NCBI GenBank assembly: GCA_963766735.1
Contig: CAVYBU010000030.1
Coordinates: 64,001-128,000 of the forward strand
Source of the DNA: an uncultured Chloroflexia bacterium
GTDB lineage: Bacteria; Chloroflexota; Limnocylindria; Limnocylindrales; CSP1-4
Direction: 5' to 3'
Length of the DNA stretch: 64,000 nt
Positions 4,742 to 28,330 of the stretch are shown here, piece after piece. The position numbers and the translations under genes are program-made. Each line of letters starts with the position of its first letter. Position 1 is the stretch's first letter. The notes under the pieces are model-generated. The model ran no database searches, was not told the DNA's origin, and was given only the letters and a program-made list of their open reading frames with translations.

Positions 4742-6067
4742 CTACGCTGCGGCGCGCGTTTCAAGGACCCGGCGGTCGACCTCGCGGAACCACACCCAGT
4801 ACAGGATCGTGGCGATGGTGTACAGGGTGATGATCGTGATGAAGCTGACCGTGTAGCCGGCCTCGAACCCCAGCGTGGCCTGGAGGGAGGCGTACCAGAG
4901 GCCGCCGATGATCCACCCCACCTGCCACAGCACGCTCATCGCCGCGGACAGTGTCGCCCGCTCGCCCGGCGACACACGCTCCATCGCGAACGCGTTGAAG
5001 ATCGGGTTGCCGGCGTTCATCAGGGAGTTCCGCACCGCCATCGCGGCAATCACCATCCACAGGACAGGGGAGAACCCGAGGACCACCAGGAACGGGATGC
5101 TGGCCCCCTGGACCAGCACGACGGACGTGATCTGGCCGAACCGCCGGGCCAGCCGGGGCTGGAAGAGGATCGCCGCGAGCGTCCCGAGCGAGGTCAGGGC
5201 AAAGACGGCATTGAGCGATGCCAGGTTGAGCCCGAACTTCACCTGCACGAACAGGTTGAGGAAGGGGATCACCTGGCCGGCCCCGATTGAGATGAGCAAC
5301 CCCGGGAACAGCAGCCTGGCGAACAGAGCCCGGTCGCGGACCGTGATCCCGAGCCATGTCCGCGAGCGGCGAGGATGGTCCGGGAGGGCGGCCGGATCTG
5401 CGTGTGGCCCCAACTGCTGCCGCAGCCTCGCCCTCGGCCGATCGTCGGACAGCAGTCCCACGGTGGCCAGGCCGGCTGCAGTGAGCAGGGCCATGATGAT
5501 CAGGATGATCCGGTACGTGCCCGACCCTGCCGGGTCCAGCCCGAGAGAGATCGCGATCAGCCCCGCGACCAGGCCGCCGAGGACGGCCGCGACGATGTTG
5601 GTGAAGCTCTGGATCGCAAACTGCATGGCGAACAGCTCGTTCCGGTGCGATGGCTCGCTGTGCTCCGTCAGGTATGGCGCGATGACCACCTGCATGGCCT
5701 GGCTCCCGGCCGTGAACAGGCAGGCGGAGACCACGATCACCGGCAGGGCCTCACTGGCGATCAGGCCGAGCAGGGCGACCAGCCCGACGGCCATCCCGCC
5801 GCCGATGACCATCCGCCGCCCGACCCGGTCGGACGCTGCGCTGGCTGGAAAGGCGACCAGCGCGCCCGCCACCGAGGAGACGGTCGACACCAGCCCGATG
5901 GTGGCGGGCGAGAGCCCCAGCGAGGCCAGGTAGAGGTTGAAGTCGATCCAGTACAGGCTCATCGCCGCGCCGGCGACGAGGGTGGTGACGAGGATGATGC
6001 GCGCATCGCGATGGAAGCGGCCCCACGCCCCGTGGAGGAACGGTCCGAGCCGACCGGAACCGGTCAC
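4742..6067 (-). CDS. MFS transporter
   Basis: About 12 TM segments; motif A-like SDRVGRR and ARRFG; probable GTG start at 6067. Confidence 0.88.
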   Translation of the reverse strand: MTGSGRLGPFLHGAWGRFHRDARIILVTTLVAGAAMSLYWIDFNLYLASLGLSPATIGLVSTVSSVAGALVAFPASAASDRVGRRMVIGGGMAVGLVALLGLIASEALPVIVVSACLFTAGSQAMQVVIAPYLTEHSEPSHRNELFAMQFAIQSFTNIVAAVLGGLVAGLIAISLGLDPAGSGTYRIILIIMALLTAAGLATVGLLSDDRPRARLRQQLGPHADPAALPDHPRRSRTWLGITVRDRALFARLLFPGLLISIGAGQVIPFLNLFVQVKFGLNLASLNAVFALTSLGTLAAILFQPRLARRFGQITSVVLVQGASIPFLVVLGFSPVLWMVIAAMAVRNSLMNAGNPIFNAFAMERVSPGERATLSAAMSVLWQVGWIIGGLWYASLQATLGFEAGYTVSFITIITLYTIATILYWVWFREVDRRVLETRAAA

Positions 6068-6125
6068 GCTTCTGCCGGCGCGTTGGGGAGGTCGCCCCGG
6101 CGCCGCTCCGGACCCAGGGTCATCG

Positions 6126-8205
6126 TCACACCAGGATGCGCGGGATCCGCTCCGACCACGCACGGGCGAAGAAGGGCTCGTCGTCCAGCCGAACGTCCAG
6201 ATCCACCCGCACGTCGAACGCCGTCTCGTCGGACGCGATCCCTCCGGTCGCCCGGATGTCCACGTCGAAACCGGGCCCTGTCCAGTGGTATGCGACCACC
6301 GTGTCGAGGTGGGTGTTCGCAGGGTCCGGGTCCGAGGCCGTGAGGACCAGCCGCTCCGAGGAATAGACCCGGGATCCATCCTCGAGGAGTACCGCGCCGC
6401 CCTCGCCGATCGTGACGGCCACGGCGCCGTTGATGACGTCCTCCTCGATCCGCCAGACCGCCGGCTCCTCATCGCCCCCACCCACGTCGCGCAGGCCCGC
6501 CGGCGTCAGCTTGAACGGCGTCGGCGTCCAGGGTTGGGGCCGCCGGAGGGAGGACCGGCAGCATGAGCCGGGACGGGGCGAGATGCCCGTGGTGGACGCG
6601 GAGGTCGCCCGACAGCGGGGAGGGCCAGAGGACCGGCCAGTAGCTCGTGAGGACGGTCAGGCGGATGCGGTGGCCCGGGGTGAACCGGTAGCCCGTGGCG
6701 CGGAGCGGGATCCGGACCTCCTCGGAGTGCTCGCTCCCGGCGGGCTCGACGGGCATCGGCTCCGGATCCGTGTCCGACCGGCGGTGGGTGAGGTTCAGGA
6801 CGCCGGTTGCCACGAGCGAGGAGACGCCCGCGGGCGAGACCTCGGACAGGCGCACGACGCAGGTCGCCACCGGCATGGATGCCGAGACGTGCAGGACCAC
6901 CTCCGGGATGCCGATGACCGAGATGCCCTCTCCCAGGGGCGGCGAGGTGTAGGTGAGGCCCCGCATCTCATCGGGGCGCAGGTCCCGGGCCAGGCCGTTC
7001 GGGTGCCAGCCGGCGCCCCAGGAGAGCGCGCCGGAGGTGCCAACCGTCGCGCGGTGCCTGATGGCGCGCACCCCGCCGGCTGATGGGGGCCCGTCGCTCA
7101 GCGAGCCATCGCCCAGGAAGAGCTCCTTTGCCGCCGTCCCGGGCACGGGCAGCGCTTCGGCCGCCCGCCATCGGCCCGGCCACGCGGCGGGGAATGCTTC
7201 GGGCTCGGCCCACGTGTGCTCGAACCAGGTCACGGCGGGCTCTCGCTCCCAACCGTTGTCGATGCCCTTCAGGTAGCGGTCGAAGAAGCGGACCATCTCG
7301 TGGAGCCAGTCCAGGTTCGGCCCCGGATAGGCGTCGTCCGGGTAGGAGTGGATCCAGTTGCCCACGAGCGTCCTGCGCGGGGCATTTACGCAGCGCTCCT
7401 GGATCCGGAACGCGGGGTCCACGTAGGAGTCGTTCCAGCCGGCGACCTGGAAGACGGCACAGCCGAGGGCCTCGTAGTCGGGGGCCAGGGACCCGGAGCG
7501 CCAGAACGGTCCGTCGGTCTGCTCGCGGATCCAGGGGAACAGCCACGGCGGGGTCTGCTCCAGGCGCTGTCGCCACTCGTCGCGCCACCCGTCGCCGCGG
7601 AAGGCGGGCAGCGGCGGCATCGCGTTCATCCCCAGCTGGCTGACGGCGTACTGGCACTTCTCGCTGGCCGTGACGCAGCCGCCGCGCATGTGGACGTCGT
7701 CGCGGTAGCGGTCATCCGTGGCGTACATCGGCAGGATCGCGCGCAGGTGGGGCGGACCGAGCTTCGCGACCTGGATGGAGGTGAAGCCGCCCCAGCTGAT
7801 GCCCCACATGCCGACGTTGCCGCTGCACCAGGGCTGCCCAGCCAGCCACTCCACGGCGTCGTACCCGTCGAGCGTCTGCTCATCGGTGTACTCGCCCTCC
7901 GCGATCCCGGGGGAGCTGCCCGTGCCCCGGACGTCCAGCCTGCACAGGGCGAACCCGCGGGCCGCGAGCCACTCTCCGCGAGCCACGTCCGCGTTGCGTC
8001 GCCAGTTGTCCTTGCCGTACGGGATCATCTCGAGGATGACCGGGAACCGCTCACCTGGTGCATTCGCGAGGGGTCGCGGGAGCCAGAGGTTCGCGCTCAG
8101 CTCGAGGCCGTCCCGGACCGGGACGCGGACATCCCAGCGGACGTCGTGGTGGTACCGGGGCTGCGAGGCGGGGCGCAGGATCTCTGCAGGGTCGTGGTCG
8201 GGCAT
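6126..8205 (-). CDS. CocE/NonD family serine hydrolase (X-Pro dipeptidyl-peptidase-like), frameshifted near 6530
   Basis: PYGKD, DVRGTGSS, GISWGG nucleophile, GWNDSY; the C-terminal part continues in another frame (TPFKLTPAGLRDVGGG...WSERIPRILV). Confidence 0.85.
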
Positions 8206-19794: not shown

Positions 19795-20400
19795 ATGGAC
19801 AACCTGCCCGCCGCCATCACGGAGGACCGATACCGCTGCCGATGGGGCGACAGCCCCGATCCCGAGTACCGCGCCTATCACGACCTCGAATGGGGCGTCC
19901 CGGTGCGGGACGAGCGCCACCTGTTCGAGCTGTTGATCCTCGAGGGCGCCCAGGCCGGCCTCTCCTGGTCCACGATCCTCCACAAGCGCCCCGGGTACCG
20001 GCGCGCGTTCGACGGGTTCGACGCGGCGACGGTCGCCACCTACGGCGACGAGGACGCGGCCCGGCTCCTGGCCGATCCCGGCATCGTGCGCAACCGGGCC
20101 AAGGTTGCCGCAGCCATCGGCAACGCCCGGGCGACGCTGGCGCTGCACGAGGCCGGGTCGTCGCTGGTGGACCATCTGTGGTCGTTCGTGGACGGGCGCC
20201 CCGTCGTCAACACCTTCGGCTCGCTCGCGGAGATTCCGTCCGAGACCGAGGTGTCCCGGGCCATGAGCACGGATCTCCGACGTCGCGGCTTCAGGTTCGT
20301 GGGGCCCACGATCTGCTATGCGCTCATGCAGTCGGCCGGGCTCGTGAACGACCACGAGACGGCATGCTTCCGCTGGGCGGAGGTGCAGGTCCCCGCGTGA
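19795..20400 (+). CDS. tag: DNA-3-methyladenine glycosylase I
   Basis: RCRW, YHDLEWG, LEGAQAGLSW, GIVRNRAK, FVGPTICYALMQSAGLVNDH. Confidence 0.96.
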   Translation: MDNLPAAITEDRYRCRWGDSPDPEYRAYHDLEWGVPVRDERHLFELLILEGAQAGLSWSTILHKRPGYRRAFDGFDAATVATYGDEDAARLLADPGIVRNRAKVAAAIGNARATLALHEAGSSLVDHLWSFVDGRPVVNTFGSLAEIPSETEVSRAMSTDLRRRGFRFVGPTICYALMQSAGLVNDHETACFRWAEVQVPA

Positions 20401-22653: not shown

Positions 22654-23487
22654 ATGACCACGCCCGATCCGGCCGATCCCGTCCGCGACGACTCGCCGAC
22701 CACCCCCGTCGACCCGCCGCCGATCCCGCCCGTGACTCCCTCCCAGCCCCCGACCAACGCCTCGCCGCCAGCCGGCGCGGCCCCGTGGGACGTTCCCGCC
22801 CAGACTTCGGCGCCGCCCTCCTGGGCCGCAAGCTCCGGCCCAACCCAGCAGACGCAACCGCAGCCGCCCCCGCATCCGCATCCGCAGTCGCCCCCGCAGA
22901 CGCAGATGCAGCCGCCCCCGCAGACGCAGACGCAGCCGGGTCTCGTGGCCGGCATCGTGCTGGTCGTGATCGGCGTCGTCGTCCTGCTGATCCGCTTGGT
23001 GGACACGACCCTGGGATCGAGCTCGTGGCCGCTCTGGATCATCGTCCCGGGCCTCGTGATGCTCATCGGCTCGCTCGCAATTCCGCCCCGTGGCGGCCTG
23101 GGTCTCGCCATCCCCGGCACGATCCTCGCCATGGTCGGCGGCATCCTCTGGGTCCAGGACGCATACGGCCTGTACGGGACGTGGGCCTACGCGTGGGCGC
23201 TCGTCGCCCCGACGGCACCCGGCCTCGCGATGCTCGTCTACGGCCTCGCCCGGGGCGACCGCGATCTGGCCGCCGACGGCTTCCGGACCACGCTCGTGGG
23301 CCTTGGCCTGTTCCTCGGGTTCGGGTTGTTCTTCGAGGGCGTGGTCGGCATCTCGGGGCACCGGATCGCGAACCTCGATGAGGTGCTCCCGTACGTCGTG
23401 ATCGGCTTCGGGGCGCTGCTCGTGGTGGCCTCGCTGTTCACCGGCCGGCGCAACCGCCGCGATCCGGGCGGCACCGGCGGCGCCTGA
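22654..23487 (+). CDS. Membrane protein with a Pro/Gln-rich N-terminus (LiaF/DUF5668-like TM region)
   Basis: About 90-aa low-complexity N-terminus, then about 6 TMs with WPLWII and WAYAWAL motifs. Confidence 0.75.
   Translation: MTTPDPADPVRDDSPTTPVDPPPIPPVTPSQPPTNASPPAGAAPWDVPAQTSAPPSWAASSGPTQQTQPQPPPHPHPQSPPQTQMQPPPQTQTQPGLVAGIVLVVIGVVVLLIRLVDTTLGSSSWPLWIIVPGLVMLIGSLAIPPRGGLGLAIPGTILAMVGGILWVQDAYGLYGTWAYAWALVAPTAPGLAMLVYGLARGDRDLAADGFRTTLVGLGLFLGFGLFFEGVVGISGHRIANLDEVLPYVVIGFGALLVVASLFTGRRNRRDPGGTGGA
22843..22937 (+). repeat. Coding tandem repeat of about 24 bp (QTQPQPPP-like units)
   Basis: cagacgcaaccgcagccgcccccg / catccgcatccgcagtcgcccccg / cagacgcagatgcagccgcccccg. Confidence 0.75.
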
Positions 23488-23490
23488 TCG

Positions 23491-24708
23491 CTACTCGAGC
23501 TCCAGGATCTCGTACCGGATCTCGCCGCCCGGGGTCACGATCGTCACGGCGTCCCCGACGCGCCGGCCCATCAGGGCCGCGCCGACCGGCGAGATGCTCG
23601 AGATCCGTCCCTCGCGGGAGTTCGCCTCCGCGGAGCTGACGACCTGCATGACGGACTCGTCACCATCCACCTCCACGCGGACGCGCGACCCGAGCCCGAC
23701 CACGGCACCGCGCTCTGCAGGCGCGACGACGACCGCGATCTTGAGCTTGGCCTCGAGCGCCTTGATGCGTCCTTCCAGGAACCCCTGTTCCTCGCGGGCC
23801 GCGTGGTACTCCGCGTTCTCCTTGAGATCTCCGTGCTCGCGCGCGGTGGCGATCCGCTTGATCACGCCCGGCCGTTGTGCATGCAGCTCAGCCAGCTCCG
23901 CCTCGAGCCTCTCCATGCCCTCCGGCGACAGGATGATCGGCTCGTGGACCTTCCGGGGCGACCCCTGGGCGGCATAGGCGGCGGCCGAGGCGATCCGGCC
24001 GGTGCCTCTGCCGGGCGCCGGACGGCGGCCGCGCTTCGCCTCGTCGCGGGCGCCATCGGCCTCGGCGGGCGGCAGGTCCACGATCCGGGTGACGGGCGGC
24101 GGCTCCGGGACCTTGGCCTCCGGGATCAGCGCGTTGGTGATGCCCGTCTCCTTGCGGGCACCCGTCTCTGCCCGCAGCACTCCCCAGGGCAGCACCGGGT
24201 CGGGTGCGTGCAGCGCAGCACGCTCGGCCGCAGGCACCCAGGCGGCGAAGGCATCCAGCAGCCCGTCCTCGTACTCCTCGGGCGCATCGGTCGCGGCCCA
24301 CCAGATCCGCAGGTCACCGAGGTTCCGCAGGAAGTGGAGCCACAGCCCGGACCACGCGGGCTTCCGGTCGCCCGGGACGGTCTTGATGATGCCGGCGATC
24401 CGCCCGGACACCGATCCGGTCGAGGACCCGATGAAGATCACCTGCTGGGACGGCAGCCAGAACCGGTTCAGGCGCAGCTGGAGGTCCCGCGATACCGGTC
24501 GCTCGCCATCCAGCCGGAGGTCCGGCACCCGCTCCAGCCACTTGCCGATCAGCGAGAGGTCCAGCGGCGGCGACGGCAGGGGGGCCTTGAGCTCCACCAC
24601 GAACACGCCGGGCGCCTGGTGCCGGACCTGGCGGCCCCACTGAGCTGGGCCGTCGGCCATCAGGCCGACCTCTCGGAGGAGGGCGGGGGCGCTGCGGTCA
24701 TCGGGCAT
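23491..24708 (-). CDS. greA: Transcription elongation factor GreA with a long N-terminal GIY-YIG-like extension (405 aa)
   Basis: C-terminal ~150 aa has AREHGDLKENAEYHAAREEQ and ISSISPVGAALMG; one uninterrupted ORF from ATG 24708. Confidence 0.88.
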   Translation of the reverse strand: MPDDRSAPALLREVGLMADGPAQWGRQVRHQAPGVFVVELKAPLPSPPLDLSLIGKWLERVPDLRLDGERPVSRDLQLRLNRFWLPSQQVIFIGSSTGSVSGRIAGIIKTVPGDRKPAWSGLWLHFLRNLGDLRIWWAATDAPEEYEDGLLDAFAAWVPAAERAALHAPDPVLPWGVLRAETGARKETGITNALIPEAKVPEPPPVTRIVDLPPAEADGARDEAKRGRRPAPGRGTGRIASAAAYAAQGSPRKVHEPIILSPEGMERLEAELAELHAQRPGVIKRIATAREHGDLKENAEYHAAREEQGFLEGRIKALEAKLKIAVVVAPAERGAVVGLGSRVRVEVDGDESVMQVVSSAEANSREGRISSISPVGAALMGRRVGDAVTIVTPGGEIRYEILELE

Positions 24709-26417: not shown

Positions 26418-27680
26418 CTAGGAGCGGCGCCGGCCACCGCCCGAGCTGGAGCCGGCTGGGCGACCTCGCCCGCCGCCACCGGACGACGAGCCGCCGGTCC
26501 CGCGCGGCGCGCGCAGCGGTTGCGCCTCCGCGTCACGACGCGGCACGAAGCCGTCGGCGACCTCCCAGGGGATCGCGGTCTGGAGCAGGCGCTGCACGCC
26601 GCGCAGCAGGTCCGCCTCGTCGATCGTGACCAGGCTGATCGCGTCGCCCGTGGCCCCGGCCCGGCCCGTGCGGCCGATGCGATGCACGTAGTCCTCCGGG
26701 TTCCACGGCAGCTCGTAGTTCACGACGTGGGGGAGGTCCTCGATATCCAGCCCGCGAGCGGCGACGTCCGTCGCGACCAGGACCCGGATCTCACCCGCCT
26801 TGAACGCCTCGAGCGCCTTCGTCCGGTCGGACTGCGCGCGGTCGGAGTGGATGGCCGTGGCAGGGACGCCATGGCGGTCGAGCCACGAGGCCAGGCGAGA
26901 GGCGGCCAGCTTCGTGCGGGTGAAGACAAGCACCTGGCGCCAGTCGCCCTCGATGATCAGGTGGGCGAGCAGCTCCTCCTTGCGGTCGCGGTCGACCGGG
27001 TAGACCAGCTGGCGGACGGCCTCGGCGGCGGTTCCGTGGCGGGAGACCTCGATGGTCTCGGGGTTCGTGAGGATCGAGCCCGCGAGGCGCTTGATCTCGT
27101 CCGAGAACGTGGCCGAGAACAGCAGGTTCTGCTTGCGGTTGGGCAGCAGGTCCAGGATCCGGCGGATGTCGGGCATGAACCCCATGTCCAGCATCCGGTC
27201 CCCCTCGTCCAGCACGAGGATCTCGACCTGGGTCAGGTTCGCGGCGCGCTGGCCGACCAGGTCCAGGAGGCGGCCCGGCGTGGCAACGAGGATCTCGATG
27301 CCCGCGAGCAGCTCCTTGATCTGCGGGTCGAGCGGGACTCCGCCGTACACCACGGAGGCGCGGAGCGGGATCTTGCGGCCATAGGTCCTGATGGCCTCGG
27401 AGACCTGGACGGCCAGCTCCCGCGTGGGCGTCAGGACGAGACAGCGGACGGGGTGACGCGCGGGCGAGAACGACGTGTTCGCGTACGGGCGAAGGCGGTC
27501 GAGGATCGGCAGCGTGAACGCGGCCGTCTTGCCGGTGCCGGTCTGGGCGGCGGCGAGGACGTCCCTCCCGGCCAGGATCAGGGGGATCGCCCGTTCCTGG
27601 ACGGGCGTCGGCTCCTCGTAGCCTTCCTCGGTCACGGTCTGAAGGAGGTCGGCTGAGAGCCCCAGCTCTTCGAAGCGCAA
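26418..27680 (-). CDS. rhlE: DEAD-box RNA helicase (RhlE-like)
   Basis: AQTGTGKT, PTRELA, DEGD, FSAT, ARGLD, HRIGRTGRAG; TTG start after GGAGAAG. Confidence 0.88.
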   Translation of the reverse strand: MRFEELGLSADLLQTVTEEGYEEPTPVQERAIPLILAGRDVLAAAQTGTGKTAAFTLPILDRLRPYANTSFSPARHPVRCLVLTPTRELAVQVSEAIRTYGRKIPLRASVVYGGVPLDPQIKELLAGIEILVATPGRLLDLVGQRAANLTQVEILVLDEGDRMLDMGFMPDIRRILDLLPNRKQNLLFSATFSDEIKRLAGSILTNPETIEVSRHGTAAEAVRQLVYPVDRDRKEELLAHLIIEGDWRQVLVFTRTKLAASRLASWLDRHGVPATAIHSDRAQSDRTKALEAFKAGEIRVLVATDVAARGLDIEDLPHVVNYELPWNPEDYVHRIGRTGRAGATGDAISLVTIDEADLLRGVQRLLQTAIPWEVADGFVPRRDAEAQPLRAPRGTGGSSSGGGGRGRPAGSSSGGGRRRS

Positions 27681-27829
27681 GGTGTTTCGTCTTCTCCGGT
27701 ATCGGCCGCTGGGCGGCGGCCGGCGTCTGCGATGGCCCGGCGCGGCGCCCGCGTGGTGCGCATGAGGCACCGGTGCGCGAGGGCGGCGGCGACCGCCGGA
27801 CTGTGGGGAGCATACTCGACAATGGGCGC

Positions 27830-28330
27830 ATGAGCGCACGGGGCACGCGGGCGATCGATGTTGTACGGCGCGCGGGCGCCGCGCATACGGTGCATGAATA
27901 TGCGCACGACGCACGGTCGGCGCGACACGAGGGCGGGTCCGGGTATGCGCTCGAGGCGGTCGAGGCCCTGGGGATCGAGGCCGCGCGGGTGTTCAAGACG
28001 ATCGTCGTGAGCGTGGACGGACGCCCGGGCCTGGCGATCGTGCCGGCCGACGCCGAGGTCGATCTCAAGGCGGTGGCGTCCGCGCTCGGCGGGCGCCGTG
28101 CGGTCATCGCGCCGCCGGCCGACGCCGAGAAGGTGACGGGCTACGTTCTCGGTGGCATCAGCCCGCTCGGGACCCGGCGCCCGCTGCCGACGGTCCTGGA
28201 CGCCAGTGCGGCTGGTTTCCCCACGATCCACGTTTCGGCCGGACGGCGCGGGCTGGAGATCGAGCTGGCCGCCTCGGACCTGGTCGCGCTGGCCAGGGGT
28301 TCCATGGCACCGATCGCGAGGCGGGGCTGA
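27830..28330 (+). CDS. ybaK: Cys-tRNA(Pro) deacylase YbaK/EbsC
   Basis: VFKTIV, TGYVLGGISPLG, VSAGRRGLEIEL. Confidence 0.92.
   Translation: MSARGTRAIDVVRRAGAAHTVHEYAHDARSARHEGGSGYALEAVEALGIEAARVFKTIVVSVDGRPGLAIVPADAEVDLKAVASALGGRRAVIAPPADAEKVTGYVLGGISPLGTRRPLPTVLDASAAGFPTIHVSAGRRGLEIELAASDLVALARGSMAPIARRG

Follow-up and report, generated by a model that had tools for sequence, protein, structure and literature searches.

GreA carrying a degenerate, probably GIY-YIG-derived N-terminal domain in Limnocylindrales-type Chloroflexota

Main finding

The window analysed here, i.e. the whole stretch of 64,000 nucleotides taken from contig CAVYBU010000030.1 of an uncultured Chloroflexia bacterium, encodes on its minus strand a protein of 405 amino acids (AA) in which a complete transcription elongation factor GreA is preceded by a folded domain of about 200 AA and a basic linker. 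The reading frame represents a single genuine gene that is conserved among Limnocylindrales-type Chloroflexota. We favour, with moderate confidence, the reading that its product is a working GreA which carries a non-catalytic module, once a nuclease, on a conserved basic linker. The parts of the gene are the following:

23491..24708, minus strand: whole gene, GIY-YIG-like domain plus linker plus GreA (open reading frame (ORF), translation, coding G+C, relatives)
24109..24708, minus strand: residues 1-200, globular alpha/beta domain of an unnamed, probably GIY-YIG-related family, degenerate in this protein (AlphaFold2 model and relatives)
23944..24108, minus strand: residues 201-255, basic Arg/Gly/Pro-rich linker, conserved and mostly predicted to be disordered (identity, predicted local distance difference test (pLDDT), isoelectric point (pI) 10.8)
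23728..23937, minus strand: residues 258-327, GreA N-terminal coiled coil (PF03449, GreA_GreB_N, E 1.1e-26, profile positions 1-71 of 71)
23818..23829, minus strand: acidic tip Asp294-Glu297 within GDLKENAEY, a motif that starts at residue 293 (identical to E. coli GreA 1grj)
23497..23703, minus strand: residues 336-404, GreA C-terminal globular domain (PF01272, E 1.6e-19; aligned to the end of 1grj)

Gene structure and conservation of the fusion

The gene comprises 405 codons and a stop (positions 23491-24708, minus strand) and its product, P0001, has 405 AA. The G+C content of the window is 67-74 % throughout, and the minus-strand frame that ends at the stop at 23491-23493 stays open up to 25308. 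The N-terminal part is nevertheless coding and not a chance extension. This is concluded from the G+C content by codon position, which is 0.80-1.00 at third positions and low at second positions across this part, with a shift of the pattern upstream of Met1, from the 889 relatives described below, and from the conservation of residues 7-16 even among relatives with an identity of 35 %. Since these ten residues are also predicted as a confident helix in the AlphaFold2 model, the start was placed at the ATG at 24708 and not at the ATG of codon 17. In L002 (98 % identity), the upstream frame is closed by a stop five codons ahead of Met1. Codons 211-264 include none of the start codons ATG, GTG and TTG in frame, and therefore a separate full GreA cannot begin inside the gene. 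The database call P0003 (389 AA, 100 % identical) omits codons 1-16 (positions 24661-24708, minus strand). Several relatives are likewise called at 389 AA, and such calls are 16 residues too short.

A database search with residues 1-250, for which 8000 candidates were scored, identified 889 matching proteins at E <= 1e-3. Among the 120 matches listed, 116 contain both GreA Pfam domains and most are exactly 405 AA long; the exceptions are P0013 (240 AA) and P0034 (254 AA), for which no domains are recorded, and two further rows that are not visible. The named matches are called 'transcription elongation factor GreA', some of them from 'Candidatus Limnocylindrales bacterium'. A locus scan with one genome per species and a four-row alignment of close relatives as the query, which reaches Chloroflexota relatives only, gave 80 loci. 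Nearly all of these come from Chloroflexota metagenome-assembled genomes (MAGs) labelled Limnocylindrales, 'Chloroflexia' or Chloroflexota. Both the N-terminal match and the motif of the GreA tip are located in a single, stop-terminated frame in 76 of the 80 loci, all of them from other genomes. The other four are incomplete: L042, L052 and L078 run off the end of their contigs, and L056 is frame-broken, with a stop after 215 codons and GreA just downstream in another frame. Frame breaks within the GreA part were found in L021, L023 and L075.

These results settle whether the fusion could be an artefact, i.e. the product of a sequencing or assembly error that merged two genes, or an in-frame extension of greA arising by chance at high G+C. 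Such an origin would be in line with the frame, which continues upstream for a further 200 codons without a stop, as often happens at 72 % G+C, and with annotations that call just a GreA of 150-167 AA (P0393, P0396). Against this, both parts are in frame in 76 of 80 assemblies, the coding G+C pattern extends throughout, the N-terminal domain is modelled with a pLDDT of 97, the frame of L002 is shut just upstream of Met1, and codons 211-264 offer no start, so that we regard an artefact as virtually impossible. The first-pass annotation of the window, which was made from the sequence alone, had described a single 405-AA ORF with an intact GreA, a globular region and a linker, and had named a joining of two genes by sequencing error as what would refute it. 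Both the single ORF and the architecture, in which one gene combines an intact GreA with a basic linker and a globular domain (~200 AA), were borne out by the reading frame, its translation and the relatives fused in frame, while the two-gene alternative is refuted by the recurrence of the fusion.

Some annotations from NCBI call only a 'GreA' of 150 AA or 167 AA (P0393, P0396) that begins inside the linker or at GreA; in L020 the frame is nevertheless continuous for 405 codons. Public annotation thus partly hides the fusion, either by the bare name 'GreA' or by calling the GreA part alone. Four Limnocylindrales-type fused genes (L031, L047, L066, L080) were found in bins labelled Gemmatimonadaceae, Verrucomicrobiia, Saccharimonadales and Deferrimicrobiaceae. 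Wrong binning or wrong labels are more likely for these loci than gene transfer; L031 has a zero branch length beside L033, which comes from a 'Chloroflexia' bin. Two contigs of one MAG (L046 and L050, prefix DASSPG01) each carry a fused gene. These two are tree sisters, 58-59 % identical to the window protein, and point to a recent duplication or, alternatively, to a bin that contains two strains.

The GreA part

Residues 256-405 make up a full GreA. Among solved structures, E. coli GreA 1grj is its best match (E 2.9e-31, aligned over 1grj residues 6-156), and the coiled-coil helices span residues 262-291 and 299-324 in the full-length AlphaFold model. The acidic tip is highly conserved across 74 fused proteins, namely the window protein and those of 73 loci, which were also used for all residue counts below. 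Asp294 and Glu297 correspond to the catalytic pair of E. coli GreA. Two NCBIfam equivalog cut-offs for GreA were passed (NF001263, 149.7 versus 145; TIGR01462, 148.4 versus 139), and the window protein scores under the cut-offs of three other NCBIfam GreA equivalog models. The intact C-terminal GreA with its GDLKENAEY tip is thus confirmed by Pfam, NCBIfam and the alignment to 1grj. Because of this family membership, the GreA part most likely enters the secondary channel of RNA polymerase and stimulates the cleavage of backtracked transcripts, as predicted from its sequence.

Family and fold of the N-terminal domain

Residues 1-255 have no match in Pfam or NCBIfam at E <= 1. An exhaustive search with residues 1-200 retrieved 732 cluster representatives (50 % identity) at E <= 1e-3, of which 466 lie at <= 1e-10 and 74 at <= 1e-30. 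For a family alignment, 76 rows with good coverage were chosen among the best 150 of the 732 representatives. GreA domains are present in 26 of these 76 members; many others are standalone proteins of ~200 AA, and some with a length of ~300 AA have an unmatched tail. Based on this alignment, AlphaFold2 predicted residues 1-200 with a pLDDT of 97.0 and a predicted template modelling score (pTM) of 0.92. The model is composed of a strand (34-39), a helical insert (51-60, 73-81), a second strand (90-96), helices (100-109 and 122-126), a third strand (134-139) and a helix (143-157). The insert between the GIY and YIG strands comprises ~55 residues.

The GIY-YIG nucleases are defined by the residues Tyr, Tyr, Arg, His (or Tyr), Glu and Asn in this order. 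In the non-fused relatives (n=26), the Tyr of GVY, the Gly of YIG, the Arg, the His of PHxGG, the Glu and the Asn of PFAN are invariant, and the second Tyr (YIG) is found in at least 90 %. Because this set of Tyr, Tyr, Arg, His, Glu and Asn is kept, the non-fused members are probably active nucleases, as judged from their sequences.

Comparisons of several kinds consistently indicate the GIY-YIG superfamily alone. With Foldseek, the top ten chains of the PDB all belong to the GIY-YIG enzyme R.Eco29kI (E 0.18-0.78, template modelling (TM) score 0.29-0.34), no other nuclease fold is listed near them, and a 'GIY-YIG domain-containing protein' takes rank 3 in the viral library. Of 15 non-fused members (198-261 AA), which were the first of 44 proteins scanned against Pfam, nine weakly match the GIY-YIG-clan families PF20815, PF01541, PF19239 and PF10544 at sub-threshold E-values of 0.003-0.35, and these matches all fall on the YIG-Arg segment or beyond it. 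The uvrC model TIGR00194 matches two of the 76 members at E 0.003, with bit scores below its cut-off. Aligned by hhalign to residues 1-100 of E. coli UvrC, the profile of the non-fused members reaches a probability of 66 % (E 5.6e-5, 53 columns) and the mixed 76-row profile one of 19 % (E 0.0012). In a language-model atlas, the window domain retrieves 27 unnamed clusters and three GIY-YIG clusters. For the non-fused member P0247, every named match shown is GIY-YIG, with scores of 0.91-0.93, and the ten best matches with a family all share one family or clan. Another profile search of PDB sequences returned GreA matches alone.

None of these tests is significant by itself; because the weak signals agree, residues 1-200 very probably descend from GIY-YIG nucleases, as a divergent branch. 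The first-pass annotation had proposed GIY-YIG-like elements in the expected order and a Foldseek search with residues 1-200 as a check. The motifs that it quoted are all present (PGVFVV at 33-38, VIFIGSS at 90-96, SVSGRI at 99-104, EEYEDGLLDAF at 144-154 and LPWGVL at 173-178), and the non-fused relatives conserve catalytic-type residues at exactly the positions it had named, so that the order of the motifs holds. The fold itself could be upheld in part: the order of motifs and structural elements and the concordant weak signals agree with it, but no single test reaches significance. Likewise, the Foldseek search did place the GIY-YIG enzyme R.Eco29kI on top, but with a best E-value of 0.18 and a TM score of 0.31.

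At E <= 0.01, none of the 76 family members matches a PADLOC defence model, and a non-fused family member has no match in the phage library. Nine proteins without GreA (P0184, P0192, P0237, P0249, P0257, P0259, P0268, P0269 and P0271; 280-386 AA) combine an intact nuclease-like domain with a C-terminal tail of ~100 residues or more. This tail has no Pfam match at E <= 1 except for HARE-HTH at E 0.11 in P0237, and the combination is a second, unexplored architecture of the family. A standalone relative with 41 % identity to P0247, annotated as 'hypothetical protein', is located on plasmid pMYCSM02 of Mycobacterium sp. JS623 (L083, positions 5962-6576). Its setting of many small unknown genes, with whiA, a DNA methyltransferase gene and rnhA nearby, is uninformative. 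A further six matches, all weaker, come from other records of Mycobacterium, Mycolicibacterium, Rhodococcus and Prevotella.

Decay of the catalytic residues after fusion

Of the six family positions, four are replaced and two are retained in the window protein:

24601..24603, minus strand: Phe36 at the first ('GIY') Tyr (Tyr invariant in the 26 non-fused relatives, present in 21 of 74 fused proteins)
24433..24435, minus strand: Phe92 at the second ('YIG') Tyr (Tyr in at least 90 % of the 26 non-fused relatives, in 28 of 74 fused proteins)
24400..24402, minus strand: Arg103, retained, in the helix after the YIG strand (invariant in the non-fused relatives, present in 74 of 74 fused proteins)
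24355..24357, minus strand: Ala118 at the invariant His of PHxGG (His in 27 and Ala in 43 of 74 fused proteins)
24268..24270, minus strand: Glu147, retained, in the helix after strand 3 (invariant in the non-fused relatives, present in 66 of 74 fused proteins)
24178..24180, minus strand: Val177 at the invariant Asn of PFAN (Asn in 25 and Val in 38 of 74 fused proteins)

The retained Arg103 aligns with the Arg of the KKR/KER segment of UvrC. All six residues occur together in one of the 74 fused proteins (L048), five of six in 14 others, and just two in 27. The degeneracy that had been noted for the window copy at Phe36, Phe92 and Val177 was therefore found again, and the lost His, replaced by Ala at position 118, is a detail beyond the earlier description.

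The distribution of these losses was related to a FastTree phylogeny of 149 N-domain rows, from which members of the 76-row alignment with fewer than 165 domain residues and seven broken or cut loci were excluded. The tree, a quick method, was rooted at its midpoint. All 98 fused rows are located within one side of 123 rows with a Shimodaira-Hasegawa-like support of 94. The remaining 26 rows are all non-fused, 14 of them standalone proteins and 12 longer ones without GreA. Another 25 non-fused rows fall within the fused side; the majority of these are fragments or calls with a broken frame. Because all fused rows share one side of this tree, the domain probably joined GreA once. The window protein lies within a set of 49 rows, starred in the tree, inside the fused side. 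This clade has Ala at position 118, Val, Thr or Met at 177, and Phe, Tyr or Leu at the Tyr positions.

The mean column identity across the 74 fused proteins is 0.71 for the N-terminal domain, 0.73 for GreA and 0.65 for the linker. The domain is thus kept under selection as strong as that on GreA and, as it is this conserved despite the lost residues, it is retained for something. In the PDB, the titles of 3nic and 3mx4 label the Y49F and E142Q forms of R.Eco29kI as 'inactive variant'. The window domain is most likely no longer a nuclease; we hold this loss of catalysis with moderate confidence.

Linker and proposed mechanism

In the full-length model, the linker has a pLDDT below 50 at residues 226-240 and 248-251. 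Shortly behind the domain, the linker segment TRIVDLPP..ADGAR (residues 207-221) is shared by distant fused proteins, and the standalone relatives lack it. Going by this recurrence, residues 207-221 may be a docking motif of their own. The N-terminus of GreA lies outside the secondary channel, as is known from structures of GreA with the polymerase. Together with the length of the linker (55 residues), this would allow the extra domain to extend to the polymerase surface around the channel mouth or to nearby nucleic acid.

A possible course of events is as follows. The ancestor would have been an active GIY-YIG nuclease tethered to the polymerase through GreA, and after the joining, the catalytic set would have relaxed, so that the clade of the window protein was left with Arg103 and Glu147. 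The GreA half would bind within the secondary channel, where it would promote the cleavage of transcripts, and the non-catalytic domain on its conserved basic linker could act as a tethered recognition module. This module may recognise nucleic acid, or alternatively a protein surface close to where the secondary channel opens, and might shift where or when GreA acts on a stalled polymerase. Arg103, Glu147 and the basic linker would be the likeliest contact elements. That the domain became a non-catalytic recognition module in the lineage of the window is a view we hold weakly, giving it clearly less than an even chance. A more far-reaching version, in which the fusion would mark an undescribed transcription-coupled pathway, is less likely still: in basal fused members with an intact site, a GIY-YIG nuclease on GreA would cut DNA or RNA at backtracked polymerase, and in the clade of the window the dead domain would be a reader that steers GreA to, or holds it at, polymerases stalled at lesions, R-loops or replication conflicts. 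If this were true and the fused protein were the sole GreA, such a module would be part of the housekeeping factor against backtracking in an entire order.

Alternative explanations

Several results weigh against the reading of the protein as a GreA with a former GIY-YIG nuclease as its recognition module. With regard to ancestry, Foldseek gave no match at E <= 1e-3 in the PDB or the viral library, none of the family members scanned reaches the cut-off of a Pfam GIY-YIG model, and the window's own domain has no GIY-YIG match in Pfam or NCBIfam at E <= 1. A sequence profile search of the PDB placed UvrC 1yd6 at E 0.85 only, second behind an unrelated designed protein. The hhalign comparison with a YhbQ-family profile gave a probability of 0.5 % (E 0.12); this profile is narrow (number of effective sequences 1.8), as it was built from close enterobacterial relatives of E. 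coli YhbQ. With regard to function, the window domain has a near-neutral pI of 6.3 compared with basic values of 9.2-9.9 in non-fused relatives, which mildly weighs against strong nucleic-acid binding by the domain itself. The first-pass annotation had envisaged a nucleic-acid-binding domain that could connect backtracked polymerase to DNA damage, R-loops or the sensing of RNA, and such a role is putative. The full-length AlphaFold model (pLDDT 89.2, pTM 0.54) has no fixed arrangement of the two folded halves. The conserved neighbours of the gene are ordinary chromosomal synteny within one order and, since shared descent within that order is enough to explain them, they give no functional hint. 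Finally, another GIY-YIG enzyme, R.Hpy188I, is said in the title of its paper to have an 'unusual active site'. As such unusual sites exist, the loss of residues is no proof of lost activity.

Two different accounts of the N-terminal domain were considered. In one of them it is not GIY-YIG at all, but an unrelated alpha/beta domain, for instance a protein-protein adaptor on RNA polymerase, whose motifs are coincidental or convergent. The missing significant match to any GIY-YIG model or structure, the 55-residue insert separating two supposed core strands and the near-neutral window domain would suit this account. It is nevertheless quite improbable, because Foldseek, the Pfam clan, the uvrC model, hhalign against UvrC and the atlas all indicate this superfamily and no other, and because six family positions, which show little or no variation among the non-fused members, follow each other as they do in GIY-YIG nucleases. 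In the other account, the domain is still a nuclease with a non-canonical site around Arg103 and Glu147, which would cut DNA or RNA beside a stalled or backtracked polymerase. The retention of Arg103 in 74 of 74 and of Glu147 in 66 of 74 fused proteins, a conservation equal to that of GreA and the unusual active site reported for R.Hpy188I speak for this possibility, as do the basal fused members that keep most or all of the set (six residues in L048, five in 14 others), which make an active fused ancestor plausible. Yet four of six positions are replaced in the window protein, three of them by residues incapable of the chemistry (Phe, Ala, Val), the variation within its clade (Phe, Leu or Tyr at 92; Val, Thr or Met at 177) resembles relaxed rather than redirected selection, and the Y49F form of R.Eco29kI carries the title of an inactive variant. 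We therefore consider continued nuclease activity improbable as well.

A different question is whether the fused gene is a specialised paralogue, i.e. a stress or repair factor, with an ordinary greA elsewhere in the genome doing the housekeeping. This would be compatible with a GreA that carries a non-catalytic module. Canonical GreA proteins of 151-153 AA with ordinary N-termini and 68-78 % identity exist on very short contigs (P0412, P0414, P0417, P0419, P0422, P0424-P0426), and the MAG with two fused copies (L046, L050) indicates that duplication occurs in the group. However, no second GreA was found in the 64-kb window or within 10 kb in any of the 77 related loci having GreA, most short GreA matches of high identity start inside the linker or GreA and are cut calls of the fused gene, and the GreA part passes an equivalog cut-off. 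A paralogue of this kind is accordingly rather doubtful. A GIY-YIG gene was likewise found neither elsewhere in the window nor within 10 kb of the related loci.

Relation to known systems

Like the canonical E. coli GreA (1grj), the window protein has both Pfam domains complete and an identical GDLKENAEY motif. In contrast to canonical GreA, which is a standalone protein of ~158 AA, it has 255 additional N-terminal residues, i.e. the folded domain of 200 AA and the basic linker. With R.Eco29kI (3mx1, 3nic, 3mx4; ~210 AA) and the N-terminal domain of UvrC (1yd6), the family shares the order of conserved residues and secondary-structure elements, and its YIG-Arg segment aligns with UvrC. Unlike these nucleases, the window domain has an insert of ~55 residues and has lost both Tyr, the His and the Asn, and it obtains no significant score with them. 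Additional sequence separates the GIY and YIG strands of R.Eco29kI as well.

GreA is C-terminal in a long protein in two NCBIfam models as well, namely NF004969 ('transcript cleavage factor/unknown domain fusion protein', 718 positions) and NF011309 (906 positions). The window protein matches only their GreA parts (571-702 of 718 and 759-901 of 906), and its N-terminal domain matches nothing in them.

Another relation exists to the GreA/B-C conflict systems of Kaur et al. (2021, eLife, PMC8195603). The passages of that paper considered here describe a Gre C-terminal domain together with TPR repeats, PIN and variable effectors, DNases among them, including restriction endonuclease (REase) and HNH, and read them as directed against invaders. 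As described there, these systems resemble the window protein in that a Gre module binding the secondary channel is joined to nuclease-type domains. They differ in having the Gre C-terminal domain only, whereas the window protein combines a degenerate nuclease-like domain with a complete GreA, including coiled coil and acidic tip, and its gene has conserved chromosomal neighbours. The effectors named in these passages (PMC8195603) do not include GIY-YIG.

A literature search, with most subscription journals and supplements outside its scope, found no paper on a GreA-GIY-YIG fusion and no paper pairing GreA with Chloroflexota. The window protein belongs to the GreA family. Its N-terminal domain would work like GIY-YIG nucleases, from which it probably derives, but it lacks the residue set of active members. 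Tethering a probable ex-nuclease to RNA polymerase via GreA is an undescribed way of using such a domain.

Significance

GreA is among the best-studied accessory factors of the polymerase, and its connection with DNA repair and with conflicts between replication and transcription is under debate. A natural combination of a probably nuclease-derived domain with full GreA, conserved in an abundant uncultured lineage of soil and freshwater, could provide a handle on the coupling of events in the secondary channel to nucleic-acid recognition. The evolutionary series from standalone proteins with the full residue set through fused proteins keeping the set to fused proteins having lost it could further be a model for the change from an enzyme to a binding module. 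In addition, the N-terminal family, with 732 clusters at 50 % identity, is without a Pfam or NCBIfam model.

Genomic neighbourhood

The most frequent neighbours of the fused gene are a divergent serine hydrolase of the beta-lactamase family (69 of 80 loci), a DEAD-box helicase (67 of 80) and a YbaK-type editing protein (48 of 80). An ABC transporter and a membrane protein are further neighbours. In the window, ARAGORN reported a tRNA-Pro (AGG) at 27536-27615 on the plus strand, inside the DEAD-box helicase gene (26418-27914, minus strand). Rfam gave no match in the window at gathering score, including no tRNA, and the call is probably false. A gene for 3-methyladenine DNA glycosylase I (Adenine_glyco, E 6e-74) is located 3 kb off at 19795-20400 on the plus strand. 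This DNA-repair gene lies within 10 kb in 38 of 80 loci, and its linkage to the fused gene is loose. Directly downstream, at 22654-23487 on the plus strand, a convergent gene encodes a protein of 277 AA without a Pfam match, which has a Pro/Gln-rich start and hydrophobic stretches and is adjacent to the fused gene in 47 of 80 loci.

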